A stretch of DNA of 63,563 bases, the filler included, from Folioceros fuciformis (lineage: Eukaryota), in assembly GCA_049999805.1 (NCBI GenBank). It is 31 parts of 31 records of this genome, joined end to end, with 100 filler letters (N's around TTAATTAATTAA, not from the genome) between each part and the next. Parts side by side here need not be neighbours in the genome. Positions count along the whole stretch, not along the records: positions 26,476 to 27,675 come from JBNGIO010000381.1; 30 more parts are not named here. The stretch is one strand, 5' to 3'. The stretch's first letter is position 1, and every line of letters starts with the position of its first letter. Shown here piece after piece: positions 4,232 to 58,958 of this stretch. The position numbers and the translations under genes were made by a program. The notes under the pieces are model-generated. The model was not told where the DNA came from, searched no databases, and saw nothing but the letters and a program-made list of their open reading frames with translations.

Positions 4232-4389
4232 NNNNNNNNNNNNNNNNNNNNNNNNNNNNNNNNNNNNNNNNNNNNTTAATTAATTAANNNNNNNNNNNNN
4301 NNNNNNNNNNNNNNNNNNNNNNNNNNNNNNNTAGGGCTCGTCTCTCGGAGATACGGCGTACCCGATTTCACGAAATCGCAAGAATGACA

Positions 4390-5159: not shown

Positions 5160-6076
5160 ACCATAGCTCTTTATGTTGGAGCACAACACTCTTTTTCCCA
5201 ATGCTACTCTAGCTTTATTCCATTGTGAATCATGCATCGTAGAGACGTTATCTTGGGCAGCAATCAAGTGTAGCATTAATTGTTCTAAGGATGTGTAGTT
5301 TGTGCAACCACCTTATGTTCACTCACCATAGATTATCCAAATCTTAACGAATAAGACAGAAGGAAAGTTCAAACCTTGAGAAAGAGGAGGCAACAAAATG
5401 ACTTCACAGATGTTGCAACAAAGGAGCTTAATCTTCACTCCCCTATTGAACATGATATGCTTGAAGTCCATATTTGTAACCTCATATATGCTCTTCTTTC
5501 CAAGTCTAAACATAGAGTAAAGTCCATAATATTTGCTAGAAGAACTTTGCTCTCCACTTTTAGTCTTTATCAATTAGGTGCTATTGAGTCTGCAATATCT
5601 TATTTCCTTAACAAAAAGACTAGAACTTTCTTTCCTAACCCTGACAGATTGCTGCAATTACTCAACTCCATTACATCAAAATTGATCCAAATCCATACTT
5701 CAACTGATTAAAGATTGAACTACCTCACCCAAAAGATGCATCTAATCTCTAGAAGTGTTGAAAAAATAATTGTTCCAGATGTTGATATTCATACCCTTTT
5801 TGTCTGGAGCAATACAAATATTTGCAACAAAACAATGAAGAAGTGCAACACGTGCTCACGTGTTACTTCTAAGTTTATCAAGAGGACTTCACGCCAAGCA
5901 CGATCTAGCATCCTTCGTTGAACTTTACCTACAATGTTTGAGGAGCAAGTAATTGATGAGGTTACAAGGACCCTTACATACCATACATGTAGCCTCCCAA
6001 AATTTTGCTTCCTTATCCTCCACCATCATTCTTTGGCATTGTCGTTTAGAACATCATCATAGCCAAAAGCTTATAC

Positions 6077-6381
6077 TGTAGGGTTATTAAAGCCCAATGT
6101 GCTTAGACTCATGTGTTTAGTCTAAGATTAGTGTCTAGTTAAGTATCATTAGTTTAGATTAGCTTAAGCTTATTTGTAGGAAGATTCTTGCGCAACTTCC
6201 TGTGCGCTTCTTGTGAAGCTTCCTAGGGAGCTCTTCTAGAGGGTATAAATACCCCCTTGAGCTCCCTTGCATATTGAGACCTTTTGTGAGAGTGTGACCT
6301 CTCTTTCTCCTCTTCTCCTTGCCTCCTCCTCTCCTCTCCTTCACCATGCTCCTCTAGCAATCCTTCAAGTGGTATCAAAGC
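6077..6381 (+). mobile_element. 5' LTR family B (6077-6367) with PBS (6370-6381)
   Basis: TGTAGGGTTATTAAAGCCC...CCTTCA followed by AG-TGGTATCAAAGC. The same LTR starts at 12890 after a PPT and occurs reversed at 13429-13712. Confidence 0.88.
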
Positions 6382-6652
6382 GAGGTTGTGGAGCTTGGGT
6401 GTGAAGTTGGATAGGTGATGATTACAAGTGCTCCGCGAGGAACGCATCGAAGTGAGTAGGAGTTGTGAGCAGCAACCCGCTGCCCAGGATAGAAGGGGCT
6501 GCCATCCCGTCAGGCCTCGGGGGCGTGAGCTCGCAGGCGCGCAGGCGCGCTGNNNNNNNNNNNNNNNNNNNNNNNNNNNNNNNNNNNNNNNNNNNNTTAA
6601 TTAATTAANNNNNNNNNNNNNNNNNNNNNNNNNNNNNNNNNNNNNNNNNNNN

Positions 6653-7006
6653 ACCCAGATACCCCTTCCTATGTTCAAACCATTATTATATTATTTTATA
6701 TTATTATATTATTATTTAATCATTTAATATTATATCTTTAAATAATATTAAACTAATCACCCAACCCTATGGCCCGGTACCGAACCTAAACCTTCCCAGG
6801 TCTGGGACCAAACCTATACCCACTCTTATAACCAAACCAACTATTTCCTGGTCAATTAACTTAATTAGCACAAAGAAAAATAGGAAAAATGACCAGAAAA
6901 TCAAGGAAAATTAGGAAAAATAAGTTGAAAAAGAAAACCAAACCATACCACTATTAACCCTTTTTCAACCAAAACAAACTACTACCCCAAACTTTGGAGG
7001 TTCACA
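6653..7006. mobile_element. LTR family C terminus
   Basis: Reverse-complement match to 20816-21200; ends ...GGTTCACA against copia RT/RH sequence. Confidence 0.8.
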
Positions 7007-8145
7007 AAGGGTCAAAGGCCCAATCTGCATCGGTGTAGCCTTCGAGTGACAGCTTTCCCGTGCTTGTGCTTCTATACACCAAACCATAGGTGATAGTTCC
7101 TTTAAGGTAGCGAAAGATTCTCTTAACAACAACCTAGTGCGCCTTTCTTGGTGATTCTAAGAATTGGGACACAGTGGAAACCGAATACTAGATGTCAGGT
7201 CTGGTCCATCCACTAACAAAGATAAGACTGCCCATGACATGGTGATAAGGAACTCACTCCATTTCCCTAGTCTCCTCTGTTGTCTATGGGCATTGATCCG
7301 CTATGACCTTTGTGCCAGCAACGTAAGGGGTGTTGACGGCCCTGGCTTGGTCCAGGCAGAATTTCTCAAGTATCTCCTTGATATACTTATATTGATGGAT
7401 GACAAAGTTGCCTTGGGCTCTATCTTCTGAGGATTTGGATTCTGAGGCAGAACCAAAGCTTGCCTCTGTCCTTCATCTCAAATCGGGTGCTCAAAAGCTG
7501 CTTTACCTCTTCTAACATGGCTTGGCTATTTGTGGCGAGGATGAGGTCGTCCACATAGAGGGCGAGGAGCACGAAGTGGGGTCCCCTGGATAGCCTTTAC
7601 ACGTTTCCAGCTGGGGAACATTGTACAAAGGAAGAATCGATCAAGTAAGAGTGCATAGTGGTATACCAAACGCGGCCACTTTGCTTGAGGCCATAAATGC
7701 ATTTCTTAACTCTCAGCACTTTGTTTGGGAACTGCTTGCTGATGTATCCTTCGGGTTGGTCCATGTAGAGCTCCTCGTCAAGTGCTCCGTATAGGAAGGC
7801 GGTGCACACGTCCATTTGGTGTAGCTCCAAATCAAGCTCTACAGCCACAGATAAGACAAGGCGGATAGACTGAGCTGGCACGACGGGGAAGAAAGTTCCG
7901 TGATAGTTGAGCCCTTCAACTTGGGAAAAGCCTCGGGCTACCAAGCGAGCCTTGAAACGGGCAACCTGGCCTTGGGCATTAAGCTTGAGCTTGAACGTCC
8001 ATTTGCAGCTGATCGGCTTCCTTCCATGGGGCGGATCAACCAGCTCCCAACCTTGTTCTTTACAAGGCTTTGGTATTCATCCTCCATTGCGAGTCGCCAC
8101 TGGGAAGATTCTAGGCCCGAAAAGGCCTGAGAGAGGGTAGTGACA
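7007..8145 (-). mobile_element. Copia reverse transcriptase to RNase H start, decayed
   Basis: [47 protein letters not shown]. Confidence 0.92.
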
Positions 8146-8311
8146 TGTTCACGTGACCGTAGAGAAGTGATTAGATTAGAATAGAATGTTACAGGACATA
8201 TCTTGTGAATTTCACTAGGTGACGGTTATTAGTTGTAACCGTCACCTAACCCTCTAACCCTAACCTGAACTAATAAAAAGGTAATTAAAATATGACCTGT
8301 CACTCCCACTC
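8146..8311 (-). mobile_element. Short 3' LTR family D (8146-8302, 157 bp) with upstream PPT
   Basis: Minus strand GAGTGGGAG|TGACAGG...GTGAACA; the same terminus recurs at 24507-24552. Confidence 0.7.
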
Positions 8312-8512
8312 AGGTGCAGGGTTAGTGTAGTTAAGTTATATATATATATAAAACTATTCTAGCCTATAAACTTAAAGCTAAAAGAAACTTAGAACCCTAA
8401 TCTAAAGAAGNNNNNNNNNNNNNNNNNNNNNNNNNNNNNNNNNNNNNNNNNNNNTTAATTAATTAANNNNNNNNNNNNNNNNNNNNNNNNNNNNNNNNNN
8501 NNNNNNNNNNGG

Positions 8513-8968
8513 TGGACCGATGTAGACAGGATTGAAACACAGAGAAAGGCAGCAGGAGCTAAGAAGAAGCCAGCAGTGGCAAGCATTGAGGTGAATAAGG
8601 AGGTACACAGATTTCTGGTGGGAGAAAGGAGAAAGGATATTGCGCGTAAGGTAGAGAGCACGAATGCGCGTGTGAAGCAGGAAGGAGGCCACGTACCTCA
8701 CACAAAGTTGGTGTTGAAGCCACTGAGTGAGAAGGAAAAGGAAGACGTGCTTTGTGGGCATGCTGAGAAGCTAGCTCTGGCGTTTGGTCTGTTGAATACT
8801 CCGAATGGGACACCTCTGATGGTAACCAAGAATCTACGCATGTGCAGTGATTGCCACAGCTCGACGGCGATCATGTCGAGGCTTGAGCAGAGAGACATTG
8901 TTGTGAGGGATGGGTACCGTGTGCATCGATTCGCAAATGGTTGTTGCAGTTGTAAGGGTCGACCATGA
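8513..8968 (+). CDS. PLS-PPR RNA editing factor C-terminus: E2 end plus DYW:KP domain ending GRP (5'-partial)
   Basis: Frame open from the contig edge: WTDVDRIETQRKAAGAKKKPAVASIEV (KPAxA instead of PG box), HAEKLALAFGL, KNLRMCSDCH, HRFANGCCSCKGRP*. Confidence 0.95.
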   Translation, partial: WTDVDRIETQRKAAGAKKKPAVASIEVNKEVHRFLVGERRKDIARKVESTNARVKQEGGHVPHTKLVLKPLSEKEKEDVLCGHAEKLALAFGLLNTPNGTPLMVTKNLRMCSDCHSSTAIMSRLEQRDIVVRDGYRVHRFANGCCSCKGRP

Positions 8969-10021
8969 GAAAGTGAAGAAGTGAGTGTAGCCAGTGCCAG
9001 GCGGATTCCTAGTGGTCTTCGGATTCTTGTTGGTGGCGAGTACCATTGTTCCCCTAACAAGAAGAAGAAGGAGAAGAAGAAGAATTGTATGATGGTGCAC
9101 TTGACGGCATTTCGCTCTGTGGGACTAGGTACTTCACAACTTTGTAGCAAGCCTAGCATGTTTTCCCTGCACTCCTGCACACTCTTCATGATGAGCACGT
9201 TGTACACGTGCTTTGCAGGGTCTCGTCAACTCCTTCTCCTTACCAATACTGCCGTATGTATATGATGCTGTACAGTGCAGGTGAAAGCACATCGGTAGCC
9301 AGTATGCCGAGGAGTATCAAGGCACAAGAGCTTGGCAGTTCACAGGATGCAGGTGAAACTAGCAACCCCAATTAGAATCCAGGCAGTGCGAGGCACATAT
9401 CTAGACTTTTACTTAACGGCAATTGCTTGTCTGGTCATATCCAGGCCCGCGTTGCCGTTTCGGCCTTCAAGATACCTACTGACCCAACTGCGTGATGAGA
9501 AACAGAGACCGTGATACCATGGCTCGCTTAAAAATATCTTGGGGTATGTAGGTTGACATGNNNNNNNNNNNNNNNNNNNNNNNNNNNNNNNNNNNNNNNN
9601 NNNNTTAATTAATTAANNNNNNNNNNNNNNNNNNNNNNNNNNNNNNNNNNNNNNNNNNNNATACCATGGCTCGCTTAAAAATATCTTGGGGTATGTAGGT
9701 TGACATGCACTTAACGTTGACAAGCCTGAAATGAACATCTTGTTTTTCCTATGGCAGCTGACAAGCACTTAACTGTTTTGTATATCTAGAGTGAAACATA
9801 AAGTTACCATCTAATATCCGTCACATGGTCGATTGGTCTGAAGCACCAGTCCGGTCGCGCACAGGTATTATAGGACGGGTCACCCCTTCAGGCAGGACGG
9901 CTCACGGTTCACCCCTTCAGGCTGCTGTGGTCAGACATACGTTTGTACAGTCTACCCGGCCGGGGATCTGGCTCGACGAGACTTTTGTTAAGAGTCATCT
10001 TCCGACAGCGGTCCCTGAACG

Positions 10022-13712: not shown

Positions 13713-15855
13713 ATTCAGTAAACCAAATCGTGCAGCGGTAGTGTGATCGGAAGAGATGAACAAGGAATGGAGTAGACTGAACAATTATGGGGAGGGACGC
13801 CCGTGGCGAACCTAGAGTGTACCCAACCGTCATGTCCAACGGTCGTGTCGTAACAATGTGACTATTCAGATGGTGCCTAGTGAGATGGCCCTAACCCTAA
13901 TTAACTAACCAGGATAAGGTTGTTCTAGAGTTAACTAGACCTACTATCATACTCCCACTCAGACTTTTCCTAGGTTCGGTCTCCTATGCGATCTGATCAG
14001 CGATGGACTAGACTGCCATCTAGGATGCTACCACGAGCGTGATCCTCTTGTGCATGTTTAAAAAAACTAGTAGCTGTTTCTTGCAAGTGGAGATTGAAGT
14101 CGTCTTTCTTCAAACTCAGGTCAGAGGATCGAAGACCAGTGTCGTCTTCACACAGATTCCTGGGTGTCCTCAATTCTCTATGCTCCTTGAGTCTGCTCGG
14201 ATTGATGACTGTGGCCACCTTTTTGTGTTTGATGTAGTCTAGCTAGTGTAGCTCGTCCTGAGACGGCCTCTTTGCCTGCTCGAGTGAGGGCTCCATACTC
14301 GCTTTCTGTGGGGCTGAGGCAGATGTTGGGAAGAATCTTACATGACCACGAAACAGCAGCGCCTGCCAGCATGTATACGTACGCTGCTACACTCCTGCGT
14401 GAATCAGGGTTTGCAGCCCAGTCTGCATCCGACCAGCCCGTCAATATCAGTTTTGAAGATCCCGAGGTTTTGTAAGTTAAATCGAGGTCCTTCGTCCCTA
14501 GCAAGTATCTGTAGATTCTTTTCACAGCTAACCAATGGTTCCTGCCCGGATTTTGAGAGAACTGCGCAACTTCCTAAGTGGCCTTGCTTATGTCAAAGCG
14601 TGTCCAAACACTCAGGTATATCAAACACCCTACAGCTGCCTTATAGGGGATAGTTTCCATATCTTTCCTTTCTTGATCAGTCGTTGGCTGATCATCTGCT
14701 GTTAGCTTAGTGCCCACGGCCAGTGGTGTGTTCACAGGTCGTGCATTAGCTAGATTAAACCTAACAGAGATGTCATGTATGTACTTGGACTGATGAAGGA
14801 TGATTGTTCCTGCAGCTCTATTCCTCTCAACCTGGACTCCTAAACAGTAGCTTAGATCACCTAGTTGTTTCATCTTATATTCCTTGACGAGCTTCTGTTT
14901 GATGTTGGCCATGAGTGATTTACTGGTTGCGGCTACCATAAGGTCATCAACGTACAATGCAATGATGACCATGCCTAAGTCATTCAACAGGACATACATG
15001 TTAGGGTCAGAGTCTGTATTGACAAAACCGAGCGACAACACAAAGGCGTTGATTCTGTTGTACCAAGCTCTCGGAGCCTGTTTGAGTCCGTAGAGGGCCT
15101 TGAGTAATTTGCAAGCTTTCTTTTCCTTGTTCTTTTGTACGTATCCTTGGGGTTGACTAACGTAAATTGTCTCTTCCAGGTCCCCATAGAGGAAGGCCGT
15201 GGTTACATCCATATGCTCAAGCTCTGAATTGAGTTCAGCGGTCAGAGCGAGTAAGAATCTTACAGTTGAAGTTCTGACGACGGGAGAGTACAGTTCATGT
15301 TCGAGGTAGTCAATTCCATTCTGTTGCCGGAATCCTCTCGCGACGAATCTAGCTTTGTACCTATCAATCGTGCCATCTGCTTTGAACTTCTTCTTGAACA
15401 CCCATTTGGTGTTGATTGCTCTACGACCCTGAGGAAGATCCTCAAGTATCCATGTTTTGTTTTCCATTAGAGAAGCGTATTCTTCGTCTGCCGCTTTAAC
15501 CCACTTTTCCTTCTCGGGACTACTCATGGCCTCATTCCAGTCTAGAGTTCCAGAGTCCTCTGCAGCAACTGTTAGTACTTGTGCCAAGTGTCCATGATCG
15601 GATGTCAAATTGGACTTCGAGGAACGAGGATGAATTGGAGCCGAGATTGTCGCTATAGCAGTGCTAGGTCTGCTGTTCCAGTACTTAGAAGGGTTGAACG
15701 GGGGCTGTGACCACTCATCCGGGTTATGAGTGTGGAGCCTGGATGATCTCCGGAGTGTGGGTAACTCAGGGGATTCGGTTTCATTTTCTGAATCAACCAT
15801 TTCCTCAGCTGGTGGTACTTCTTCTTCCTCGTGCTCATGAGTTGAGTCTGAATGC
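13712..15855 (-). mobile_element. Copia family E RT-RNase H, PPT (about 13951-13960) and 3' LTR (13712-13949)
   Basis: ORF 14574-15800 with YKARFVARG and ALYVDDL; GWSDADW; GAGTGGGAGTA|TGATAGTAGG. Confidence 0.9.
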
Positions 15856-15955
15856 NNNNNNNNNNNNNNNNNNNNNNNNNNNNNNNNNNNNNNNNNNNNT
15901 TAATTAATTAANNNNNNNNNNNNNNNNNNNNNNNNNNNNNNNNNNNNNNNNNNNN

Positions 15956-17740: not shown

Positions 17741-20700
17741 TTAGCAGCGAGGAGGCAGATGAACTAACAACCAAATCAGGGAGCATAGGCTCCCACCTCC
17801 ACACAAACTAGATAAATGCTCCAATTGCTTCTTAGCATCCTTGCAGTAACTTGTAAGATGACAAAGTCGTAGGCTTTTCAAATGTTGATAGTGCTTCAAC
17901 TTGGGCAAGGCCTTTGTTAATATGTCAGCTATATTCTTGTCTGTAGGGACATAATCCACCTTAACAACACCACGCCCAACCAAGTCTCTGATGTAATGGT
18001 GCTGAATTTCTATGTATTTTGTTCTAGCATGAAACCTCTGGTTTGCAACAAGAGCCAAAGCAGACATGTTATCACACAATAGAGGAGTTGGGCTCATCTG
18101 CTGTTGCCCCAAATCTGTAAGGAAGGTCCTTTCCCATTCTGCTTCCTTTGAAGCATCTATTAAGCTCTTATATTCTACCTCTGTAGACGAGAGGGCGATA
18201 GATGCTTGCTTTTTGCAACTCCAGTTTATGGCAGCATTTGCTAAAAGGAAGCAATATGTAGAGAGACTTCTCTTGTTATCACTATCTGATGCTCAATCAG
18301 CATCTGTGAAACCTCGTAAGGTAAGTTGCTTCTCTCCACTGCTTTTATAGCATAAGCCATAGTATTGAGTGCCTTTCAAGTAACGGAAGACTCTTTTGGC
18401 AGCTACCCAATGAGCGCATCCAGGATGCTCCAGGAACTGGGAAAGTGTGCTTACATAATATTGTATATCAGGACGTGTCCAATTCCCACCAAAGATCAAA
18501 CTCCCTTCTGCATGTCTATAAGGAACATTAGTGATTTCTTGTTTCTCTGCTTCAGACTATGGGCACTGTAGGCTTGTTAGTTTAACACCCATGGCTGATG
18601 GTGTAGTTGCTGGTTGTGCTTGATCAAGCTTAAACTTGGTCAAGATGTCTTGTATGTACTAATATTGGTGTATCATCAAAAGTCCTTCAGATCTGATGCA
18701 AAGCAACTGTATGCCTAGGCATAATTTTAATTCCCCTATGTCTTTCATTTCGTACTTGCTGCTTGGCATGGACTTAACTTCTTCTAACGGCTTATTACTT
18801 TTGGTAGCTAAAATCAAGTCATTGACGTAGAGGGCAAGGGCAACATATTCTTGTCCTCTTGCTAGCCTGTAAACATTACTGTCAGCTGCACTTTGCTTAA
18901 ATGATCTGCTTAGAAGGTACAGGTGGATGTTCAGGTACCAAACTCTACCACTTTGCTTCAGACCATAGATGGTCTCTCAGAAGTTTGCATACTCTCTTAG
19001 GGTAAGTTTTAACTTCATAGCCCTCGGGTTGAGTCATGTAAAGGTCCTCGTCTAGTGCCCTATATAGAAAAGTGGTGCAGACGTCCATTTGGTATAGTTC
19101 CAGGTCATACTCTGCTGCAAGGGCTAAGATCATCCTAATTGACTGCGATCTTACAACAGGAGAGAATGTTTCTTGATAATCTAAGCCTTTAGCCTGTGTG
19201 AAGCCTCTGGCGACTAATCTCGCCTTATACCTAGCTATCTCACCCTTCTCGTTTAATTTTAGTTTAAAGACCCACTTGTAGGAAATGGGTCTTCGGTCAA
19301 ATGGAAGGTCAACCAATTTCTAGGTATGGTTCTTTACAAGACTGTTAAACTCATCATCTACAGCAAACTTCCATTTTTCCTTCTCTGGACTTGTGAAAGC
19401 TTCTGTGAGTGACTTGGGTTCTAAGTGCACTGTTGTGGATGCAGCATGAGCAGCTTGGGCATATGAGGTGCGAAAATCAACAGACTCATATATGGGTTCC
19501 TTCCATTGTTCAGGTGGTGGCGTGTTTCTAGTAGACCTTCTCAAAGGAGGATCACGCTCCACAGGATCAACAGCCTGTTCATATTCTAGTTGTCCTTCGA
19601 AATCAGCTGCTGCAACAAATAAATCCAGGTCATCTTCATCAGCAGGTATCTCTAAGCCATGTCCATTTATAAGATCATGAATTTCATGTTCTTGGTTATT
19701 ATCGTTAGGATTGACATCATCATTCAGATTTCCTGGATTTGTAGCATCTTTATTGGCAATAACATCCTAACCATCATCAACAACATCTTGGCCATTTCGA
19801 ACAACATCCTGACCATTTGCAACTGGTTGTATCGCAAGAGTTGGAGCTGATGGAGGGAAATAATCACCGGCTGCTTCATCATGGAAGTCATAATCTGAGG
19901 TTTCATTGCTGATGGGTATGGCTCCCTCTGAAGTCAGTGTGGGATCCTGATTAGTATGTGTAGGATTAATAGGCTCGATGAATGTGACAAAACGGGCTAC
20001 CACCACTTTGTCATTATCAGGGTCATAGAGCTTATAGGCCTTCACATGATCACCGTATCCGATAAAAATGAGAGCTTGGGCTCTAGCATCCAGTTTCTTT
20101 CTCTTCTCCTTGGGGATGAGAGCAAAAGCTTGGAATCCAAATACTCGTAAGTGTAGGAGGCTAGGTTTCCGCTTCCATACAACTTCATAAGGAGTTTTGG
20201 AAGGGACAGAATTGGAGAAGAGGCGATTCAAGACATATGTGGCAGCAACAATAGCTTGTGCCCAGTAGATCTGAGAAAGACCAGCCCATATCAGCATGCT
20301 ACATGTCATGGACAACAATGTTTGGTTCTTTCTCTCTGCAACTCCGTTCTGTTGGGGAGTATAAGGGACTGTCAACTGACGTTGTATCCCTCTCTCTTCA
20401 AGGAAAAGATCAAAGGCTAAGTTGTTGAACTCATACCCATTGTCTGTCCGCAGTTGCTTTAGAAGAAGGCCAATTTGTCTCTGAACCGTAACTAACCACT
20501 CTTGGAAAATGACAAATGTGTCACTTTTCAGGTGCATCGAATAAGTCCATGTATGCCTGGAGTAATCATCAGTCAAACAGAAGTAGTAAAAGGAGTCTTC
20601 TAGGGAGGGGACATGTATCTTTCCTGAAATGTCGGCATGAACCAAATCAAGCACAGCCTCTGCCTTGAATGATGCTACTGAAGGGAAGGGCTGTTGTTTC

Positions 20701-20815
20701 TGCTTGGCTGGAATGCATGCTTCACAAGAAGGTAGATCTTTGAAACATCTGGGAAGTGGTTCTTGGTGACAGCCTTAGAGAGACATATCAATAAGCTTGT
20801 TTTTATTAACGGGAC
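17741..20815 (-). mobile_element. Copia pol (pre-integrase, integrase, RT, RNase H), decayed
   Basis: [46 protein letters not shown]. Confidence 0.95.
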
Positions 20816-24406: not shown

Positions 24407-24552
24407 NNNNNNNNNNNNNNNNNNNNNNNNNNNNNNNNNNNNNNNNNNNNTTAATTAATTAANNNNNNNNNNNNNNNNNNNNNNNNNNNNNNNNNNNNNN
24501 NNNNNNACCCTAACCTGAACTAATAAAAGGTAAAATTAAATATAACCTATCA

Positions 24553-25200
24553 GGGAGAAGACATCCTTCACCATTCAGCATCCAGAGCTACATCCCTTGC
24601 CCATCATGGGCCTCTTCTTTAAATGGTCGTGTGATTTGATTGGTGAGTTGCCCCAAACTGCATGTGGGAATGTGTATGTGCTCGTCATGATAGAGCACTT
24701 CAGCAAGTGGGTTGAGGCTATTGCGCTACCGGATAAAACATCCAGGAGCACCTCTCAAGCTTTCCTGTAGAATGTAGGGTGCTGTGCCAAATGCTTGACC
24801 GACCAGGGGTCGGAATTTCGGGGTGAATTCTAGGACTTACTAGATGCAGCCCTAATCGACCACCGCAGAACAAGCCAAGACCACCCCAGGCAAATGGTCT
24901 CACCGAGCGGATGGTCCAAACCATTAAGAAGGGCTTGAGGAATCTCTGTCTGCAGATGCCAAGATGGAGTGGGACTTGGCTTTGCCGTATATCGTCATGG
25001 GGTACAGGATGAGTAAGCATGCTTCCTTAGCACACTTCTCACCATCCTTCCTATTCTTTGGCCATGAGCCTCTGCCACCCAGCGCTATTGCTAAACAGCT
25101 GCAGCAAATGGTGAATTTGGACAGTCCAGTTGTATGGGCTGAGGTCATTGGAGACAGGGCTGCCCTATTCAGATAGGTAATGCCTATGCCTATTGACAAT
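24553..25200 (+). mobile_element. Ty3/gypsy integrase core, same lineage as the PHD-bearing integrase
   Basis: PLPIMGLFFKWSCDL, IEHFSKWVE, LTDQGSEF, HPQANGLTERMVQTIK; WDLALPYIVMGYRMS is homologous to 38154 onward. Confidence 0.9.
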
Positions 25201-26475
25201 TATATCTTCTACTTGACTAGAGCATCTAAGACTAGAAGAAAGACTTGTAAAAGTAATCTAATATATAAAAATGAACAGATGTCCTTTTATACACAAATTG
25301 TATGTGTCTTTTGAGTTAGATAGGTTAACCCTCAAGCTACCTATCTTGAGTAAGACTCGTGTTGGGTTTAATTCCCCAACACTCCCACTAACCCACACGA
25401 GGGTTACTTATTCGCACATATACTCACAAAGATATCAATCATATATACACACTACCACCGCTATCCATGAGTGACAAGGTACACCACATGGAGCTCTTGC
25501 TCGCGTTCCTCTCGTGCATGCGTCTCGTGAGAAAGGGAGGGGCCATATGCATAAAGGCGGGAACGCTCACAGAAACCTCATCCAGAGTTCGTGCCGCCCT
25601 CAGCCACAAGACCCCAAAAGATGGTGAAGACCAGCCGTAGTTGCCCCAACAGAAGTCAGGCACGAGGACGCCATGAAGCTGGAGGCACCAAAGCAGCTGC
25701 TACGCCTGCGACAGACGAAGTAGCGCTACCACCGGCTCTGCCTTCTTGCACTCTTGGCAGCTTTGTGCCCAAACTGACGGCTTCTGACTCGATGTCATCC
25801 AGGCCTAGCTTGACAGATCTTGATCAACTTGCAAACCCCACGGGGGAAGAGGTGGAGAGCGCTTTCCGTCATTGATCTCACAAAGGATCTCCCACTGCTC
25901 TCGTGCTAGCTGACCAGGTTGAGGTTGTCTTCGCTACACTGGACGAAATGGAAAAAACTCCTGGATGTGAAGAGAGTCGAGGGGTGGCTAGGCAACAGGC
26001 AGCTCTGGTTGAAGAATCTGTTGCACGAGCTGTTGGTACTGCAAACGAGGTCTATAATAGCATCGAGGCAAGCAGAACCAGACGTGCAGGCAAAGACTGT
26101 TGCGTTTGCACCTACAGTAGCCGACTGTGTCCTCTGTGCGGGAAGAATTTGCATAAGGTGAGTTCTATGCTAAACATACTGTATGCTCTGTCCACGATTG
26201 AATCAGTGAAATAAACTTCATCCTCTAGACAGACCATGTACCTGACACTAACCCGAATTTCGTTTTTCTAAGCAGGGTGGCTACAGACCTGGAACAGTCA
26301 CAAAACAAAAGGGGGGTAAAGGCCACTAAGTTGTAGACTTCTTGTGTGGACAGAATACCAGAACAGTTTCCAGGANNNNNNNNNNNNNNNNNNNNNNNNN
26401 NNNNNNNNNNNNNNNNNNNTTAATTAATTAANNNNNNNNNNNNNNNNNNNNNNNNNNNNNNNNNNNNNNNNNNNN

Positions 26476-27675
26476 GAAATGGGGGACCTGGCGAGGACCT
26501 GTACGAGACATAAGTTGAAAGGCCAGGCAGATGCTGACCAGCCATGTCATTGCGTAAAGATCCATAGCACGGCCCAAGGCTAAGCACCGCTGCTGAACTG
26601 TGACTTGCGGTGCTGCTGTAGAATGGGTGTGAAAACCCATCACTCGCTCTTGTTCCTCCACATTGAGTTCCTCCCACTGTTGTGTGTCAATGTTCAACAA
26701 CATGCCAGCTCCTTGTTCTCTATATGCATGAGAGATAGCTCACCAGCGTAGGAAGGGTACTGCGTGGCTGTCCTGGGACATTGGTGCTATACCAAGGTTT
26801 CCTCTCTGCAGCATGGACAGGCCGAGGCTGGTGATTGCTGTCCAGGACTGTGACCAGGCTCAAGGATGGGTCCTGAGTGGTACCAGCCAACACCAATCCT
26901 AGCAAGGGTTGGGGTGCAAGGTTGGTCCAAAAATTACGCAAGCGATGTGCGTAACTGCCCACCTGTACAGCATCAAGTAACAAAGGAACTCCCACATGCT
27001 GCTGGATCATAGCCATGTCCTGTCGAACCTGTAGTCGAGAATCCAGCTGGGCTGGAGTGTTCTCCAAAATGTAAAGCACAGGTAGGGTTGCGGGCCTGAA
27101 TCCACACCAAGATGCGTCGCAGATCCCAGAAAAGAGTAGAGCGCATATCTTGCAAACATGCTCCAGTGCCAGCTGAGGAAAACCCTTGGCATTCCCAACC
27201 AGCCACTACGATGTCTATGGGTGGTAGGCGTTGAATGTGCCCAACCTGGATGTACTGGACATCCTGTGGAAGGGCTGTAAACATGGCAGCCGTGGCAATG
27301 AGTGGCAGCTGTGTTGGAAATCGGGATTGAAGTCCCTGAATTCGAAAAGCAGCTAGCTTCCTAGCTGTGGGACACTTGTCACAATAAATGTATTGGGCCA
27401 CAACCAGCCCATTCTGCACCATGGCTTCCAATCCAGTGCATAGGCCCCCAAATAGTTCCAGAACTGTTAAGCCAGGTGCAGAGAGTGTCCATGCTATGAT
27501 GGACTGATTGACATCGCCGAGCGTTGGTTGCTCATCTGGTGCAGGAGGTGGCTGCATCCTTTGAAGGGCCAATTGCACATGTGGGATGGCCACATGCAAG
27601 ACGTCTGCAAATGGGTCACCCATGTCATTTTTCAACAACACATCCCTCAAGCACGAGGTTGCTACTAATGACTGT
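26476..27675 (-). pseudogene. DNMT3-like C5-cytosine DNA methyltransferase domain, intronless, two frameshifts (about 27080 and 26733)
   Basis: Motif I VLELFGGLCTG, IV GWECQGFS (catalytic Cys at 27189-27191), VI ILENT, VIII AHRLRNFWTN, IX EQERVMGF, X RCLALGRAM, in canonical I-X order; frames are open at both contig ends. Confidence 0.9.
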
Positions 27676-33121: not shown

Positions 33122-33265
33122 NNNNNNNNNNNNNNNNNNNNNNNNNNNNNNNNNNNNNNNNNNNNTTAATTAATTAANNNNNNNNNNNNNNNNNNNNNNN
33201 NNNNNNNNNNNNNNNNNNNNNGTGGTATGCTGAGGAGCTCAGCATGAGCAGGGTCCAGCACTTTT

Positions 33266-34944
33266 TTGAAAACCATAGCTTTTGATGCTCATAGGTGCCT
33301 TATGACCACAACCTCACAGCTGAATGCGCTAATCAATAGCTTTAGCAACCTTAGTTTGCAGCCTGCACCTATCAGAAACATGGCAACACAACAGTCAGTT
33401 TCCTTTAGTTCAGATGTCAAGGACAAGGATAGGTTTAGAGGTACTGGTTACTCTATCTGGCGAGTACGGATGAAAACCATCCTCACAGCACGTGGTGTCT
33501 GGTCGAGTGTCGATGGTACTTTTAAGAAACCTGACCTAGTAGCCAAACCTGATGAGTATGCTAAGTGGGAGCATAATAATGGAGTGGCTATGGCAGTCAT
33601 TGTTAATGGGCTTGATGCAGTTTTGATTCCCAACGTTGAATTCCTCACATTGGCTGAAGAAATTTGGAATCAGCTTGAAAAGACCTACCACACAACCACA
33701 ATGGCAACATTGTCCGCTGTCCGTATGGAGTTCTACACATTGCGGATGAAAGAAGGTGACAAAATGGCTGCACATACTAGCAAATTTCGTCATCTTCGAG
33801 CTCAGATTCAGTCCATCACGAAAACACAGATGACGGAGTCTGAGGCTGTCTCCCAGCTGCTCACGAGCCTGCCACCCTCTTACCAATCTTTTGTCACCAG
33901 TTACCAGAATGGCCCTGTTGCAGCAGCTGCTGCAGGAGGGACACAGGCTGCAGCCATCACCATGGAAGACGTAATCGGAGCCCTCTACCAAGAGGAGCAA
34001 ACCCGCTTGACTTCGGCAGGCTTACACAAACAATCCAAAGCCGAAAGGGCATTACCTGTGAATTTTCGCCCCAAAGGAAAGGGCAAATTCAGAGGGGGAA
34101 ATTCAGCACAAACCAAGGACAGGCCTGAACCCTCAAGCTCAAAACGACCAGGCACATGCAATTGGTGTGGCATACCTGGCCATTGGGCACGCGAGTGCCG
34201 AAAACGCAAAGCTGGTGAGCCCCAGAAGCAGGCGAAACCTGCTGCAAGTGTTGGAGTGAAGGACAAACCTGTCGAAAAGGCACCAGTGAAAATTCTCACC
34301 ATATGCTTGTCAAGTTCGACACATGATGATGAGAGCTGGTTCCTCGACTCCGGGGCTACCACGCACATCTGCAAAAAAAGGGAGTTGTTCACTTCCCTCA
34401 ACCTTGTTCATGTCCATGAAAAGGTCCTCCTTGGTGATGAGCAGTCTAGGACTAGTCTGCATATTGAAGGCAGAGGCACGTGTGTTTTCAAATTGAAAGA
34501 TAACACAGACCTCACACTCGAAGATGTTCTCTTCGTACCCAACATGGCTAAAAATCTCATGTCCATGAGTCAGCTCATGCGTTTATGTACCTTCACCATG
34601 TATGCAGATTCTAAGCACTGCTTATTCTATAGAAGTACATCTCCTAGTAGATGTGTCTTTAAGGGGATTCTTGACAATTCCCTTTACCGCTTGGACATAA
34701 CCTGTTCACAACAGACAGCCGGTCAGCATGCTGTACATTCCACTGGTGTATCCTCACTTAGACCTGAGCAGGTAGCAGTCTTGTGGCATGCGAGATTAGG
34801 TCACGTGAATAGACGAAAATTGATAGATATGTCTATAACTGAATGCCATAGAGAACCCCTGCCCAAATGTTTCAAAAACTTACCTCTATGCGAGTCGTGC
34901 ATATTAGCTAAGCAGAAAGAATCACCTTTCCCTAATGCACCTGC
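33266..34944 (+). CDS. Stop-free copia gag-protease-pre-integrase ORF (3'-partial; likely ATG 33380)
   Basis: FRGTGYSIWRVRM, LLTSLPPSY, CNWCGIPGHWAREC, WFLDSGATTHIC, WHARLGH...CESC. Confidence 0.93.
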
Positions 34945-35044
34945 NNNNNNNNNNNNNNNNNNNNNNNNNNNNNNNNNNNNNNNNNNNNTTAATTAATTAA
35001 NNNNNNNNNNNNNNNNNNNNNNNNNNNNNNNNNNNNNNNNNNNN

Positions 35045-37690: not shown

Positions 37691-38153
37691 CAAGAGGGGA
37701 GTGTGTTCCCCTCTTCCTTTTGTTTGGGGTTAGTCTAGTGACTCTTGCCGGGTAGGAGGAGTCCGTAGGGAAGTGTAGAAGGTAGTGGTGTCGTTGCTGG
37801 TTGCTAGTAGTTGTTGGTGTTGGTGCTGGAGCGAGAGAGTGAGTGAAGTGTGTGAGGGAAGTCGCAGATCTGAGAGGTTAGAGTCGTTGTAGTGACTGGA
37901 GTGAGTTTGTGGGCACCGAGAGAGGTGCAGCTGACCGCCGGACAGCGAGGCCTGTCCTACGCCTGATCGGAGCTGGAGGGGAGCCCTCGAATCCATCATC
38001 GAGTCGATCAAGTCCGACCCTCCATCCACAGCAGCAAGGAACCCCATCGCTCCTTCGTGGGAACGAAACCCAATGTCTCAACGACAGTGGGATAAGTGTG
38101 GCCACTAAAGGTGGAACCCATTGGCAATCAGTGCCCGGGGTTTTGCCTCCACA
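37691..38153. mobile_element. LTR family A terminus inserted into gypsy integrase
   Basis: Matches 1-502; ends CCACA at 38153. Confidence 0.88.
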
Positions 38154-38845
38154 ACTTGGCTTTGCCATACATTGCCATGGGCTACAGGATGAGCAGGCAA
38201 GCATCACTGGCCAACTTCTCACCTTACTCTCTTCTATTTCGGAGAGAGCCAGTACCACATGTGGCCATTGCCCGAAAGATGCAGGAGGTGCTAAGCTTGG
38301 ATGATCCAGCAGCATGGGCCAAGGCCATTGGAGAACATACAGCGTTATTCAGACAGGTGATGCCAATGGCCATGGCCAACCTCAGGATAGCCTAGCATCG
38401 TGATATGCTCAGGTATGCTCACACTAGAAGTGGGAGCTTCCATCCCAAGGTCAGGAAATTTCAGCTAGGGGACTACGTCTACCTACAGCAGGATACCTTG
38501 GAGCCTAGCACCAGCAGACATGTGTTACAGGTGCAAGGGGTGCATAGGAATGGAGTACTGTAGCTGGAAGGGTCAGATGGGAGGGTCACCACAGACTACA
38601 TGAAGAACTGCGCCCCTTGCCATCTGCCCAACTTGGACCCCACGCTAGTCACAGCAAATTGGATCCCTCCAGCTGATTACCCATATCAGGTGTGCAGGCG
38701 GATTGACGATCCAAAGCTCATGATGTTGTGTGACGACTGCAATGGAGGCTTCCATTTATTTTGCCTTCAGCCACCATTGACCGAGGTGCCGGAGAACCTA
38801 TGGTATTGCCCTCTCTACCGAGCTAGGGACCACAGGGATAACTGA
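38154..38845 (+). pseudogene. Gypsy integrase C-terminus with C-terminal PHD finger
   Basis: One frame with two TAG stops: LALPYIAMGYRMS...FQLGDYVYL...KNCAPCHLP...Y(C)QVC-x11-LCDDC-x3-FHLFC-LQPPLTEVP-x3-WYCPLY(C)...*. Confidence 0.88.
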
Positions 38846-39089
38846 TCAGGTAAACTCAATGGGTCCGATTCACTTCTTTGCATGGCCTGTCTACAGTTTT
38901 GGTGCCAGGTATCACCACACCGGGGGGGATCAGGACTTGCAAGGGCTACCACTTTGTTTGACTGGTTTCCAATTTGCCTTACGGTCACGTTCATGATCAT
39001 CAGGCTAGCTGGAAAGCGAGTGCCCAAAATCTTTCTCTTTCATACAATCCTGCTGATTGTCAGCCAACTGATCAGGCTGACGCTATTTA

Positions 39090-40174
39090 GCATGACACGC
39101 CTATGCCTCCTCCTCTGTCAGCTCTTCCAGGACTGCCTCTGAATAGTAGGGAGGCAGTCCCCACACTCGGCAACAGTGGTAGAAGGACCCCCTGCGGGTC
39201 CTTAGCTATAGGCAGTAGCCCCTTGTCACTCCTGATCCCACACGCACATATACAGTCAATTTCAGCACACGGGCTCCATCCACATAAAGGCCAGGAACAT
39301 AAGTGGCCTCATCCTGATATTGCAACAAAATTTGATCCTCTGTTGCAGATGAAGTGCTTACCCCCTCCTACCGTGGGCTACTCTTGACTGTCTGCCCTCT
39401 GATTTCCAGTGGCATTGGAGGATCTTCCATCCCCCCAACTGCTGCTCCTCCCTGCTCCGTCCTCCTGGTGCGAGTTGCCCTTCCAAACCTGCGAGTTGCA
39501 GGTTCCTCGATGGTTACTTCTTCCACTACCTTGGTCGGTCTCTCCTCTACCGGCGTGGTCTCTCTCCAACCGATAGCTTCTTCAGCTACCTCCATTGCAG
39601 CTTGGCTACTTCGCCTAGCTCTGCCCTTCCCTTTCACTCTGCTCCGAGCTTCGTCCCGTTCCCGCTTGTACTTGTCCGCCAGCTTTTGCACTCTCTCCAT
39701 TGTAGTCGATTCCTATTCCTGGGCCTTCACTAATTCCTGTTGCATCTCCTGGTTAGTCCCATGGGCCTCTCTCACCTGAGTTAGGAGCGACTCTTGTTGC
39801 TCCTTCAGCTTCTGCACCTCCTCTCGAGCTTGGCGGGCTTCCTCCTCTGCTTGCTCCTTGGCCGCGCTTAGGGTCCGCTAGATTTCTTCCAGGTGCTACC
39901 GACTTGCTTTGGCCTCAACTAGTTTCTCCTGTGCTTCTGCCCCTGTATACTTAACCAGGTTAGTGCCATGGTAGCTTGGTCCAACATGTCCACTTGAGCC
40001 TGCACCATCGCCATAGTCAATCCTGGCAAGTCCACTCGCTATGTCTCGTCCCCAGCAGCCATCCTCCTGTCCAAGATCTACCTTCCTAGCAGCGCATGAA
40101 CTCTATCTAGATCCTCCCCTTGCAGCAGCCTTGTCACTAGAGGGACACCCTTGAAAAGGATCCCAACTTGGAAA
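39090..40174 (-). pseudogene. Antisense accessory ORF (coiled-coil-like) downstream of integrase-PHD
   Basis: VDLPGLTMAMVQAQVDMLDQATMALTWLS matches VDLPGLTAAMVQAQADLLDQAARALTWLS in 56579-57289. Confidence 0.65.
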
Positions 40175-40408
40175 TGTTGAGTTATCGAGCTCTATATGAG
40201 CTAAACTCATGTGGTGTTAGTTATCCCAGTTGGGTTCATACTAGACTAGTTCTAGTTATTAGTGAACTTAGGATAGTGTAGATTATCCCATATTGAACCT
40301 GGAAGTTGTGTAGCCCTAAATGTACTACTTAAATGGAGACCTCGGACCTCCATAGTAAGACAATGGTGATGTGTATTGTTTTCATGGTTGTGATCACCAA
40401 TACCACCA
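40175..40408 (+). mobile_element. LTR family G-like insert
   Basis: Starts TGTTGAG and shares ACTTAGGATAGTGTAGATTATCCCATATTGA with 31595-31625; right end uncertain, no TSD seen. Confidence 0.6.
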
Positions 40409-40555
40409 TCTCTTCTCTCCTCTCCTCTCCTACACTTGCACGTAGATTGGAGTCGNNNNNNNNNNNNNNNNNNNNNNNNNNNNNNNNNNNNNNNNNNNNT
40501 TAATTAATTAANNNNNNNNNNNNNNNNNNNNNNNNNNNNNNNNNNNNNNNNNNNN

Positions 40556-41006
40556 AGAGGGGAGTGTGTTCCCTTCTTTCTTTTCTTTGGGGTTAGTCTA
40601 GTGACTCTTGCCGGGTAGGAGGAGTCAGTAGGGAAGTGTAGAAGGTAGTGGTGTCATTCTTAGTTGCTGGTGTTGGTGCTAGAGTGAGAGAGTGAGTGAA
40701 GTGAGTGAGGGAAGTCGCAGATCTAAGAGGTTAGGGTCATTGTAGTGACTAGAGTGAGTTTGTGGGCACCAAGAGAGGTGCAGTTGACCACCGGACAGCG
40801 AGGCCTGTCCTACGCCTGATCGGACCTGGAGGGGAGCCCTCGAATCCATCGTCAAGTCGATCAAGTCCGACCCTCCATCCACAGCAGCAAGGAACCCCAT
40901 CACTCCTTCGTGGGAATGAAACCCAATGTCTCAACGACAGTGGGATAAGTGTGGCCACTAAAGGTGGAACCCGTTGGCAATCAGTGCCCGGGGTTTTGCC
41001 TCCATA
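40556..41006. mobile_element. LTR family A terminus
   Basis: Matches 1-502; terminal CACA reads CATA here. Confidence 0.88.
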
Positions 41007-48626: not shown

Positions 48627-50544
48627 AGTAGCATCGTCAGGATGAACACCGGCAGCTAACATCTCCTCAAAACGAGCTAGCGCCTTGCGACCTTCATCAC
48701 AAGCACCATACCCAGCAATCAGGGCATTCCATGTAACCACATTCTTTGTGCTCATGCTGTCAAAAACCTGGCGTGCATCTTCCAGCTTACCACATTTTGC
48801 ATACATGTCCACCAGGCAGGTTCCCACCACTACATCATCCAGCACACCTCTGTTGACAATCTGTGAGTGCAGTTCCCTGCCCTTCTGCAAGGCACCAGTC
48901 ATTCCACACGCCTTCAGAAGGCAGGCAAAAGTAACACAGTCAGCCAAAACGAGCCCTGCCTCCTCCATCTGTCCATACACAACAAGCGCCTCTTGGCCGA
49001 GTCCTTGCTGTGCATACCCAGCAATCATGGCTGTCCATGTCACCACATCCTTCGAGGCCATGCCGTCGAAAACCTGACGTGCATCTTCCACCTCACCACA
49101 TTTCGCATACATGTCCACCAGGCAGGTTCCCACCACTACATTATCCAGCAGTTCTCTTTCGACAATCTGTGAGTGAAGGTCCCTGCCCTTCTGCAAGGCA
49201 CCAGTGCTCGCACACGCCTTCAGAATGCAAGCAAAAGTAACATCATCAGCCAAAACGACGCCCGCCTCCTCCATCTGTCCATACACAACAAGGGCCTGTT
49301 GGCGGAGTCCTTGCTGCGCAAACCCAGCAATCAGGGCATTCCATGTCACCACATCCTTCGACACCATCCTGTCAAAAACCTGGCGTGCATACTCCACCTC
49401 ACCACATTTTGCATACATGTCCACCAGGCAGGTTCCCACCACTACATTATCCAGCAGATCTCTTTCGACAATCTGTGAGTGCAGCTTCCTGCCCTTCTGC
49501 AAGGCACCAGTGCTTCCACACGCCTTCAGAAGGCAAGCAAAAGTAACCGTGTCAGCCAGAACGAGGCCTGCCTCCTCCATCTGTCCATAGACAACAAGCG
49601 CCTCTTGGCCCAGTCCTTGCTGTGCATACCCAGCAATCAGGGCCGTCCATGTCACCACATCCTTCGAGGCCATGCTGTCAAAGACCTGGCGTGCATCTTT
49701 CACCTCACCACATTTTGCATACATGTCCACCAGGCAGGTTCCCACCACTACATCATCCAGCAGACCCCTGTGAACAATGTGTGAGTGAAGCTCCCTGCCC
49801 TTCTGCAAGGCACCAGTGCTTCCACACGCCTTCAGAAGGCAAGCAAAAGTAACACGGTCAGCCAAAACGAGGCCCGCCTCCTCCATTTCTGCATATACAA
49901 CAAGCGCCTCTTGGCCGCGTCCTTGCTGTGCATACCCAGCGATCAGGGCCGTCCATGTCACCACATCCTTCGTGTCCATCCTGTCAAAAACCTGGCGTGC
50001 ATATTCCAGCTCACCACATTTTGCATACATGTCCACCAGGCAGTTTCCTACCAGTACATCATCCAGCAGACCTCTGTGGACAATCTGTGAGTGAAGCTCC
50101 CTGCCCTTCTGCAAGGCACCACTGCTTGCACACGCCTTCAGAAGGCAGGCAAAAGTAACACGGTCAGCCACCACCAGCCCCGCCTCCTCCATTTCTCCAT
50201 ACACAACATGTGCCTGTTGGCAAAGTCCTTGCTGTGCATACCCAGCGATCAAGGCATTCCATGTCACCACATCCTTCGTGTTCATGCTATCAAAAACCTG
50301 GCGTGCATCTTTCATTCGGCCACACTTTGCATACATGCCCACCAAGCAGTTGTTAACAAACAAGTCAGTACGGAAGCCACTGCGCAACACGTCGCGGTGC
50401 ACTGTTCTGCCAGATTCTAAGTCGGCACCATATGCACAAGCTTGAAGGGCGGCTACAAACACATAACCATTCGCCTTCACTTCTGACCTACGCATTTCAT
50501 GGTACAGTTGTATGGCCTCCTTCGGCTTCCCGTGCTTAGCATGT
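48627..50544 (-). CDS. PLS-class PPR protein, internal portion (partial at both ends)
   Basis: Stop-free across the contig; five 102-aa P(36)-L(35)-S(31) triplets (VVTW[N/T]ALIAGYAQQG / VTFACLLKAC / CLVDMYAKCG) followed by a P2-like motif. Confidence 0.97.
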
Positions 50545-58452: not shown

Positions 58453-58958
58453 TCATGGATATGTAATTTCTTGTAACCCTAAGGCTGCAACATGTTGAAA
58501 ATGACGACTTCTCAACAACCCTTTTGTAAGAATGTCTACAGTGTTGTCATTTGTGTTCACATACTCCACCCTAACAGTTCCACGTTCTGCAGCATCTCGT
58601 ATATAGTGATGATATAACTCAATAGGCTTGGTACATGCATGAAAGCGTGGATTGGAGACAAGGGGTATTGCACTCATGTTGTCACATAACAATATGGTAG
58701 GACCCTCTTGCTTCTGCTGAATTGATTTGAGAAACTATCTTTCCCACTCAGCTTCCTTGCATGCGTTTGTAAGTGCTTTATATTTGGCTTCAGTTGATGA
58801 GAGAGCAAGAGAGGTCTATTTCTTACAGCTCCAACTCACCACAGCAGAAGATAGTAGGAAACAGTAGACTTCTCTAAGAATCTGCATCCGAGGCCCAATC
58901 AGCATATGCAAAGGAGTTAAGTACCAAACTCTTACTGCCACTTGCTGAATACTATAGG
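58453..58958 (-). mobile_element. Copia RNase H, decayed
   Basis: VSWSCKK, LCDNMSAI, NTVDILTKGL. Confidence 0.88.

Follow-up and report, generated by a model that had tools for sequence, protein, structure and literature searches.

A decayed DNMT3-like methyltransferase domain, very probably from a multicopy Gypsy-DNMT3-type retrotransposon of a seedless land plant

We describe a 1,200-base contig, positions 26476..27675 of a 63,563-nucleotide stretch of DNA (the window, in its entirety), which very probably represents the dead, neutrally decaying methyltransferase part of a multicopy Ty3/gypsy-type long terminal repeat (LTR) retrotransposon of the "Gypsy-DNMT3" kind, resident in a seedless land plant that is most likely a hornwort. 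The window comprises 31 contigs of 1,031-4,140 bases each, separated by N/TTAATTAATTAA spacers, and contigs adjacent in it are not neighbors in the genome. The feature under study, a decayed piece of reading frame from a retroelement, with a DNMT3-like C5 cytosine methyltransferase domain on the minus strand, takes up the whole of one such contig (GC 0.52) and is open at both ends. The first-pass annotation of this DNA had proposed a retrotransposon-encoded DNMT3-like enzyme in a fern-like vascular plant, and its several claims are taken up below alongside the results that bear on them.

The methyltransferase domain is recovered in full when three minus-strand stop-to-stop frames (27719-26973, 27205-26720 and 26739-26428, translated as P0001, P0002 and P0003, respectively) are laid against a family profile built from 70 full-length relatives: together they tile the profile from end to end, colinearly and with neither gap nor overlap. 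The first piece (27086..27491; residues 62-200 of P0001, profile positions 16-158, E = 1.7e-53) carries motif I, ELFGG (27444-27458), and motif IV, GWECQGFS (27177-27200); the second (26735..27088; residues 40-157 of P0002, profile 156-275, E = 3.7e-40) carries motif VI, ILENT (27056-27070), motif VIII, AHRLRNFW (26927-26950), and the target-recognition stretch; the third (26497..26733; residues 3-81 of P0003, profile 278-356, E = 8.2e-29) carries motif IX, EQERVMGF (26632-26655), and motif X, LGRAMD (26560-26577). The two frame breaks are placed both by the profile tiling and by sibling contigs, the first at 27073..27090, where most siblings are one base shorter at 27073, and the second at 26733..26735, where roughly half of the sibling depth has five extra bases behind 26733. 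The domain is complete, with zero internal stops, no intron-like gap and exactly two frameshifts, which deny this copy an uninterrupted reading frame; the contig extends 61 residues before it and 7 residues after it. Even P0001 alone passes the Pfam model PF00145, with 29.4 bits where the cut-off is 22 (E = 6.9e-07), and the domain keeps its catalytic Cys, the Glu of motif VI (ENx) and the RxR of motif VIII. E-values of this order lie well outside what chance would produce. The unpermuted order of the six motifs, the pair of frameshifts, the lack of introns and the frames open at the contig ends had each been called at first pass, and all are borne out. Upstream of the domain lies a linker of 61 residues (27492..27674) in which Pfam recognized neither PWWP nor ADD nor any other family; comparison of the 75 N-terminal residues with the linkers of protease-DNMT and RNaseH-DNMT relatives likewise gave no useful match, the best (E = 0.002) being to a fragment without a name. 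The PWWP and ADD domains that mark the DNMT3 subfamily are accordingly missing here, and the relatives have a protease or RNase H upstream instead.

Judged by its sequence, the domain is DNMT3-like, as the first-pass annotation had it. Searched against the PDB, the family profile retrieves DNMT3A (1.2e-24), DNMT3B (2.7e-22) and DNMT3C (8.1e-22) far ahead of tobacco DRM (1.9e-12), Arabidopsis DRM2 (6.6e-09), M.HhaI (7.4e-09) and DNMT2 (5e-03), and DNMT1 is not among its 55 PDB matches; the alignment with DNMT3A runs in three colinear stretches that correspond to motifs I, IV-VIII and IX-X. This signal came from the family profile, a single-piece phmmer search against the PDB being weak (M.HhaI 2.1e-4, DNMT3A 2.4e-3), and the ESM Atlas returned generic C5-methylase clusters only (0.92-0.94). 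The same affinity is seen in the fold: an AlphaFold model of the domain of L001, a natural, intact relative with a Pro-Cys loop and not the window copy itself, reached a mean pLDDT of 90.2 and a pTM of 0.87, and the PDB matches listed for it by Foldseek (ranks 1-49) are all DNMT3A, 3B or 3C, the best with E = 1.5e-18, a TM-score of 0.83 by target length and about 21% identity. The catalytic domain of mammalian DNMT3A/3B/3C is thus the best match of the family in both profile and fold, with an identical motif order and with motifs VIII-X of the types AHRxRxxWxN, ERExxG(F/Y) and LG(R/K)xxD/S. The window family departs from it in being only about 21% identical, in lacking PWWP and ADD, in a greater distance from motif VIII to motif IX, in the Glu that replaces Pro before the catalytic Cys, and in being embedded in a retroelement polyprotein.

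Three other classes of C5-methyltransferase were considered and set aside. DRM enzymes have a permuted motif order, whereas that of the window is I-IV-VI-VIII-IX-X, and the DRM chains match only profile positions 110-242, via their C-terminal part. In CMT enzymes the catalytic domain is interrupted after motif I by a chromodomain; here only 81 residues, without an extra domain, separate ELFGG from GWECQGFS. As for a bacterial or phage methylase, the bacterial enzymes score far under DNMT3, and the relatives are eukaryotic polyproteins. A placement among bacterial methyltransferases, which had been named at the outset as grounds for abandoning the proposal, is not suggested by these scores (M.HhaI 7.4e-09 against DNMT3A 1.2e-24).

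The first-pass annotation had singled out the catalytic loop WECQGFS as unusual, with Glu-Cys (EC) in the place of Pro-Cys (PC). The EC pair is indeed present, and the canonical Pro-Cys of motif IV is not found in the window copy; however, the feature is not peculiar to this copy. Among 255 family proteins, motif IV has EC in 158, PC in 83, SC in 7, DC in 3 and other pairs in 4, and EC forms the majority in both of the architectures described below (82 of 123 of the RNaseH-DNMT type and 16 of 28 of the protease-DNMT type). A cruder pattern count over the best 150 matches gave a similar picture (EC 79, PC 38, SC 6, DC 2, CC 1, no match 24). Moreover, the AGWECQGFS of the window is identical in its nearest relatives P0250, P0261, P0004 and P0006. 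Because EC is the majority state of the family and the same in these nearest relatives, the Glu-Cys loop is to be read as an inherited family trait and not as a decay mutation.

The case for a retroelement is made by the relatives. A phmmer search of P0001 against 1.84 billion cluster representatives yielded 755 matches with E<=1e-3, 335 with E<=1e-10 and 4 with E<=1e-30, the best being 47% identical; a further search with P0001 for longer homologues gave 1 match only. Reverse transcriptase (RT), RNase H or integrase is also present in 68 of the best 150 matches, and among these 150, gypsy-type polyproteins make up 51 of the 54 relatives of at least 1,000 amino acids, the commonest long form being RT-RNaseH-DNMT-integrase-PHD (24 cases). 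Pfam scans of five long matches found RVT_1, RT_RNaseH, Integrase_H2C2 and rve in four, with a PHD finger in three of those four and the methylase only in the fifth (P0011); in a second set of long matches all five of these retroelement-associated domains were present in three of three. A search with a 19-member alignment recovered 141 proteins, and among the best 120 of these, eight have a name that identifies the organism: Marchantia polymorpha Mp_4g09160, two proteins of Calypogeia fissa, two of Chromochloris zofingiensis, and one each of Chlamydomonas eustigma, Monoraphidium neglectum and Mesostigma viride. The Marchantia protein heads a 90% cluster of 18 members spread over chromosomes 1, 2, 4, 5 and V, five of which are 1,278-1,281 amino acids long. 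When 255 family proteins were typed by where their DNMT domain stands, it followed RNase H in 123 and a protease in 28. Both architectures end in an integrase and a PHD finger; chromoviruses carry a chromodomain where these elements have the PHD finger.

The window copy falls with the smaller, protease-linked set. Over the whole domain it is 49.8% identical to P0250 (255 residues), 49.6% to the Calypogeia protein P0261 (268 residues) and 42.5% to the Marchantia protein P0226 (341 residues), and in P0229, P0250 and P0261 Pfam recognizes an aspartic protease ahead of the DNMT. In a maximum-likelihood tree of 130 rows (129 family proteins, with near-full-length domains or kept by name, plus the window copy with X at its breaks), unrooted and made up of family members only, the window copy clusters with P0250 and Calypogeia fissa P0261 with an SH-aLRT support of 98. 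The loose set of 19 rows that encloses this cluster (support 85) takes in every one of the 10 protease-DNMT rows (including those of Marchantia and Mesostigma), the sole DNMT-RT-RNase H-integrase row and 3 RT-RNase H-DNMT-integrase rows. Two long proteins display how the arrangement continues: P0298 (2,300 amino acids) reads protease-DNMT-RT-RNase H-integrase-PHD in a single frame, and the Calypogeia protein P0286 (1,549 amino acids) reads protease-DNMT-RT. The phylogenetic check advocated at first pass thus places the window copy among protease-DNMT relatives, within the compass of such a tree; likewise, its view of the domain as part of a gypsy polyprotein holds for 51 of the 54 long relatives, but in the nearest relatives the DNMT lies between protease and RT, closing the gag-protease frame, and not between RNase H and integrase.

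These results also bear on two accounts that dispense with a resident transposon. One would make the contig a decayed host gene, that is, a DNMT3 paralogue or a processed pseudogene (retrocopy) derived from the plant's native de novo methyltransferase. An intronless, frameshifted, DNMT3-like domain is what such a gene might leave behind, and non-seed plants do possess a host DNMT3, as described in PMC5890265 and PMC10952607. Yet 51 of the 54 relatives of at least 1,000 amino acids are retroelement polyproteins, the window copy clusters with protease-DNMT proteins with a support of 98, its EC loop and QG.S signature are those of the element family, sibling copies are many, and neither PWWP nor ADD occurs in the 61 upstream residues that were scanned; we therefore consider a host gene very improbable. 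The other would have the contig be the remnant of a transposon-derived DNMT that was co-opted as a stand-alone host gene and later lost. It could draw on the 106 of 252 family proteins in which the DNMT domain stands alone, but most of these are short, cut gene calls on short contigs, the substitution pattern relative to siblings is neutral, and the multiplicity of the sequence suits a repeat, all of which makes this the least probable of the explanations weighed here.

The organization of the more complete Gypsy-DNMT3-type elements could be followed in a scan of metagenome contigs, which yielded 80 related loci. In L001, gag (1006-2304) is followed by the protease (3094-3384), the DNMT (about 3700-4812), an in-frame TAG (5083-5085), RT (5431-5979), RNase H (6133-6531), integrase (6910-7482) and the PHD finger (8050-8205); L003 has the same layout, as do L009 and L016, albeit with breaks. 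The stop is set in TAG CAG TTA in L001 (5083-5085) and in TAG CAA TCA in L003 (4661-4663), with one frame on both sides of it, and this context fits the UAG-CAR-YYA read-through motif of tobamoviruses. The five Marchantia proteins of 1,278-1,281 amino acids terminate at the place corresponding to the TAG of L001 and L003. As regards the retroelement neighbors that the first-pass annotation wished to see, protease, RT, RNase H and integrase do surround the DNMT in P0298, L001 and L003, but a flanking LTR pair was found in none of the four loci. By homology with such relatives, the window copy would itself once have been linked to gag and protease on one side and to RT on the other.

Sequencing data from one sample allowed the contig to be compared with its siblings. 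Three runs of that sample (X1, X2 and X3) were placed on the 1,200 bases at a likeness of at least 80%; two runs of one sample contain 0.53 of the contig's sampled words and may be the window's own source data. In X1, 121 contig pieces fall on the 1,200 bases (35 at >=99%, 40 at 95-99%, 28 at 90-95% and 18 at <90%), and in X2, 112 contig pieces do so, with at most 9 contigs sharing any one alternative letter. The DNMT family is hence multicopy and diverged in the sample; the single-copy locus that would have told against a mobile element is not what the sample displays, with 121 pieces at 80-100% likeness in X1. At 27073, five sibling contigs are one base shorter (depth 131/175.4 in X1 and 79.4/105.7 in X2), and behind 26733 the five extra bases occur in four contigs of X1 (58.7/112.8) and three of X2 (30.0/60.4), the X1 and X2 data being contigs, so that depth is not copy number. 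Because both sites show length differences from siblings, the frameshifts are particular to the window copy or shared by a minority of copies. Elsewhere in the window there are Ty1/copia reading frames for gag, integrase and RT that stay open for as many as 582 residues (e.g., 14574-15899 on the minus strand, 19767-20774 on the minus strand, 33248-34996 on the plus strand and 51184-52878 on the plus strand); since such intact copia frames are common, the base-level quality must be good, and sequencing noise is an unlikely source of the DNMT frameshifts.

The substitutions tell the same story of decay. The 33 that were scored are the best-supported X1/X2 differences listed, out of 282, those seen in X3 only having been dropped; their distribution over codon positions 1, 2 and 3 is 10/13/10, and 10 are synonymous against 23 that are not, a neutral pattern relative to siblings. 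At sites with a sibling majority, the family has C or G where the window has T or A in 21 of 26 cases, and the contig's CpG observed/expected ratio is 0.36 (0.28-0.74 over all window contigs). Such a C/G-to-T/A bias and CpG depletion are to be expected if a copy is silenced and its methylated cytosines deaminate. The window copy is dead, neutrally decayed, and writes no methylation; the family does sit in retroelement polyproteins, as the earlier suggestion of LTR elements with a methylation writer of their own would have it, but this copy is no such writer. The third run, X3, differs from the 1,200 bases by 58 C>T and 75 G>A changes, with other changes at most 10 each, and looks like a bisulfite or similar conversion library. 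No RNA run was among the sequencing runs found to contain contig sequence.

Two further fragments of the same element type lie on other, unlinked contigs of the window. At 24552..25221 on the plus strand there is a broken integrase core in three frames, 50-53% identical to ORF2 of L001 and L003 over two main stretches (within 24552-25200), as against 28-52% over the main stretches for the RNaseH-DNMT-integrase type, so that it is closer to L001/L003 for most queries. At 38129..38869 on the plus strand, a stretch from beyond the integrase includes a PHD finger and is interrupted by 3 stops; it matches the end of ORF2 of L001 and L003 (at 38153-38869) with 47% identity, as against 37-41% for the RNaseH-DNMT-integrase type. 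Such a tail is peculiar to the DNMT-bearing gypsy family. The two fragments cover partly the same stretch of the protein and so come from different copies. Five contigs have in common a repeat of some 460-500 bases, 92-96% alike (1-503, 37691-38154, 40556-41004, 52827-53292 and 58956-59461), which is probably a copia LTR or 3' region, because in contig 50645-53547 it is located after the end of a Ty1/copia polyprotein; the same repeat adjoins the integrase-PHD fragment in contig 37691-40455. A scan of the whole window with Rfam gave 0 matches.

The two host genes recognized in the window argue for a land plant, and one of them for a hornwort. A 639-residue open PLS-type PPR array (48627-50544, minus strand; PPR_2, E = 6.4e-106), which runs off both ends of its contig, is a land-plant host gene fragment. 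In contig 8511-9560, positions 8513-8968 on the plus strand encode the C-terminus of a PPR editing factor. Its DYW deaminase domain (PF14432, E = 3.3e-35) belongs to the DYW:KP type, with a KP box, an HAE active site and GRP as the final residues. According to the text of PMC9478123, DYW:KP domains are linked to U-to-C editing and confined to hornworts, lycophytes and ferns, DRH and GRP being the two hornwort variants and the tracheophyte DYW:KP proteins forming separate clades. Among the 23 best homologues of this domain, which are 59-72% identical to it, GRP is the ending of 4 and DRH that of 12, whereas the named fern proteins (Ceratopteris and Adiantum) are 48-56% identical and have other endings, and the seed-plant matches have HSE and DYW or DFW. 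With 16 of 23 homologues thus ending in one of the hornwort variants, the fern-like vascular host first envisaged gives way to one that, on this protein evidence, is likely a hornwort, most of the remaining probability lying with lycophytes or ferns.

It might be objected that the DNMT contig comes from a contaminating organism, such as an epiphytic green alga or another bryophyte, rather than from the plant with these PPR genes. The window does consist of unlinked, unitig-like contigs: because in two contig pairs the ends coincide over exactly 47 bases (9514-9560 = 9661-9707 and 40409-40455 = 55356-55402), its contigs look like de Bruijn unitigs (k=48) that end at branching repeats, and the ends of the DNMT contig overlap no other contig of the window. 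Many relatives of the family, too, come from metagenomes and green algae. Nevertheless, the nearest named relatives are liverwort, that is, land-plant proteins and not algal ones; the copies are many, diverged and decayed, as a repeat-rich plant genome would have them; the contig's GC of 0.52 and CpG ratio of 0.36 are not out of line with the other 30 contigs, which span 0.36-0.58 and 0.28-0.74, respectively; and the window holds the two further fragments of the same element type. We accordingly regard a contaminant as improbable, and retain the interpretation of a Gypsy-DNMT3-type remnant in the genome of the host plant itself.

Several observations weigh against that interpretation or narrow its base. 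Contig 26476-27675 carries no protease, RT, integrase or LTR, and its connection to a retroelement is by homology of its relatives, not by physical linkage, in line with the reservation voiced at first pass. Direct-repeat (LTR) pairs flanking the coding region were not found in L001, L003, L009 or L016, whose contigs probably end before the repeats. The 130-row tree includes no host DNMT3, DRM or Klebsormidium sequence, the hornwort assignment stands on the subtype of one protein and the statement of one paper, and to these may be added the contig nature of the X1 and X2 data. The Glu-Cys pair departs from the canonical Pro-Cys, and the one streptophyte (Klebsormidium nitens) Gypsy-DNMT3 domain assayed in yeast gave no methylation, a result that its authors, in the text of PMC5890265, call inconclusive.

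DNMT-carrying gypsy elements as such are already known from Klebsormidium, and annotated members of the family exist in the Marchantia and Calypogeia genomes. The first-pass annotation's mention of such retrotransposons in dinoflagellates and Klebsormidium (de Mendoza et al. 2018) agrees with the text of PMC5890265. The Klebsormidium nitens element described there, KnitGypsy-Dnmt3, resembles the one inferred here in being multicopy, in its streptophyte host and in its intronless, unpermuted DNMT3-related domain within a gypsy Pol polyprotein; it is described as being under purifying selection, and its copies as silenced and methylated in the host, with CHH and CHG methylation. The present case differs in its host, a land plant that is probably a hornwort, and in its Glu-Cys loop, the key residues of KnitGypsy-Dnmt3 being conserved according to the paper; the position of the DNMT between protease and RT in the window's nearest relatives also contrasts with the published wording "Pol polyprotein", a comparison by description and not by sequence. 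A 2026 preprint from the same group (10.64898/2026.05.21.726589) speaks in its text of "streptophytes (Gypsy-DNMT3)" and further describes captures of a DNMT4-like kind, in Cymbomonas and Euglena. SymbioDIRS-Dnmt3 of Symbiodinium likewise has a retrotransposon-borne DNMT3-like domain, and, per the text of PMC5890265, stands alone among such classes in that yeast experiments showed it to methylate CG de novo; it belongs, however, to a tyrosine-recombinase (DIRS) element of dinoflagellates and is in its authors' view an independent capture.

Kinship is also found with the liverwort proteins, the Mp_4g09160 cluster of Marchantia polymorpha (BBN08134.1 and 17 other members) and CAM6082409.1 and CAM6101866.1 of Calypogeia fissa, which belong to the same family and sub-lineage as the window copy, share the protease-DNMT(-RT) architecture and, in Marchantia, are multicopy across chromosomes; Calypogeia P0261 has the AGWECQGFS loop as well. 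With only 40-52% identity, they belong to another element lineage, in another plant group, and the Marchantia copies have Pro-Cys and intact frames of about 1,280 amino acids, whereas the window copy is broken. Green algae and metagenomes also yield gypsy elements of the order RT-RNaseH-DNMT-integrase-PHD (for example P0230 of Chlamydomonas eustigma, P0212 of Chromochloris zofingiensis, and P0008/P0159). These have the same DNMT family, the integrase-PHD tail and a frequent EC loop (82/123), but their DNMT follows RNase H and not a protease, and the DNMT, integrase and PHD sequences of the window are mostly closer to the protease-DNMT arrangement. Our literature search, which did not reach most subscription journals, figures and supplements, found no report of DNMT-bearing retrotransposons in land plants and no mention of Mp4g09160; the liverwort members are apparently undiscussed. 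Any claim to a first in land plants is weakened, because the alga is published and two liverwort genomes hold annotated members.

In the nearest relatives, then, the element runs from gag through an aspartic protease and the DNMT3-like domain, followed in some copies by an in-frame stop, to RT, RNase H, integrase and PHD finger. We propose that in intact copies the DNMT is translated as the C-terminal part of a gag-protease product, the RT-RNase H-integrase-PHD part being reached by read-through or in one frame, and that the element's own protease might free the DNMT, which could then methylate cytosines de novo on the element's new cDNA or on nearby host DNA, an idea put forward for DIRS-Dnmt3 in the text of de Mendoza et al. 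(PMC5890265). The PHD finger after the integrase would probably read histone tails and guide insertion. Catalytic activity in any member, its substrate and the role of the Glu-Cys loop are conjectural parts of this scheme. More tentatively, and with the odds rather against it, one may conceive of the DNMT3-gypsy elements as an old green-plant lineage reaching from chlorophytes to bryophytes, with a land-plant branch in which the DNMT lies at the end of the Gag-protease frame, before a leaky UAG-CAR-YYA stop, and would be made in Gag-like and not RT-like amounts. The mostly Glu-Cys loop of these enzymes might go with an altered activity or substrate (cDNA in the particle, RNA, or binding without catalysis), and hornworts might hold intact, active copies that methylate themselves or their host.

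Hosts fight transposons chiefly by cytosine methylation, and a transposon with its own writer reverses the roles. As far as we found, such transposon-borne writers are in print for dinoflagellates and one streptophyte alga, with a 2026 preprint on other algae. The same DNMT family extends into land plants, namely the probable hornwort studied here and, in public annotation, Marchantia and Calypogeia; it is very large in public data, with two architectures and mostly a Glu-Cys loop. The value of the window copy thus lies in its being a pointer to a family that is open to study in tractable bryophytes.

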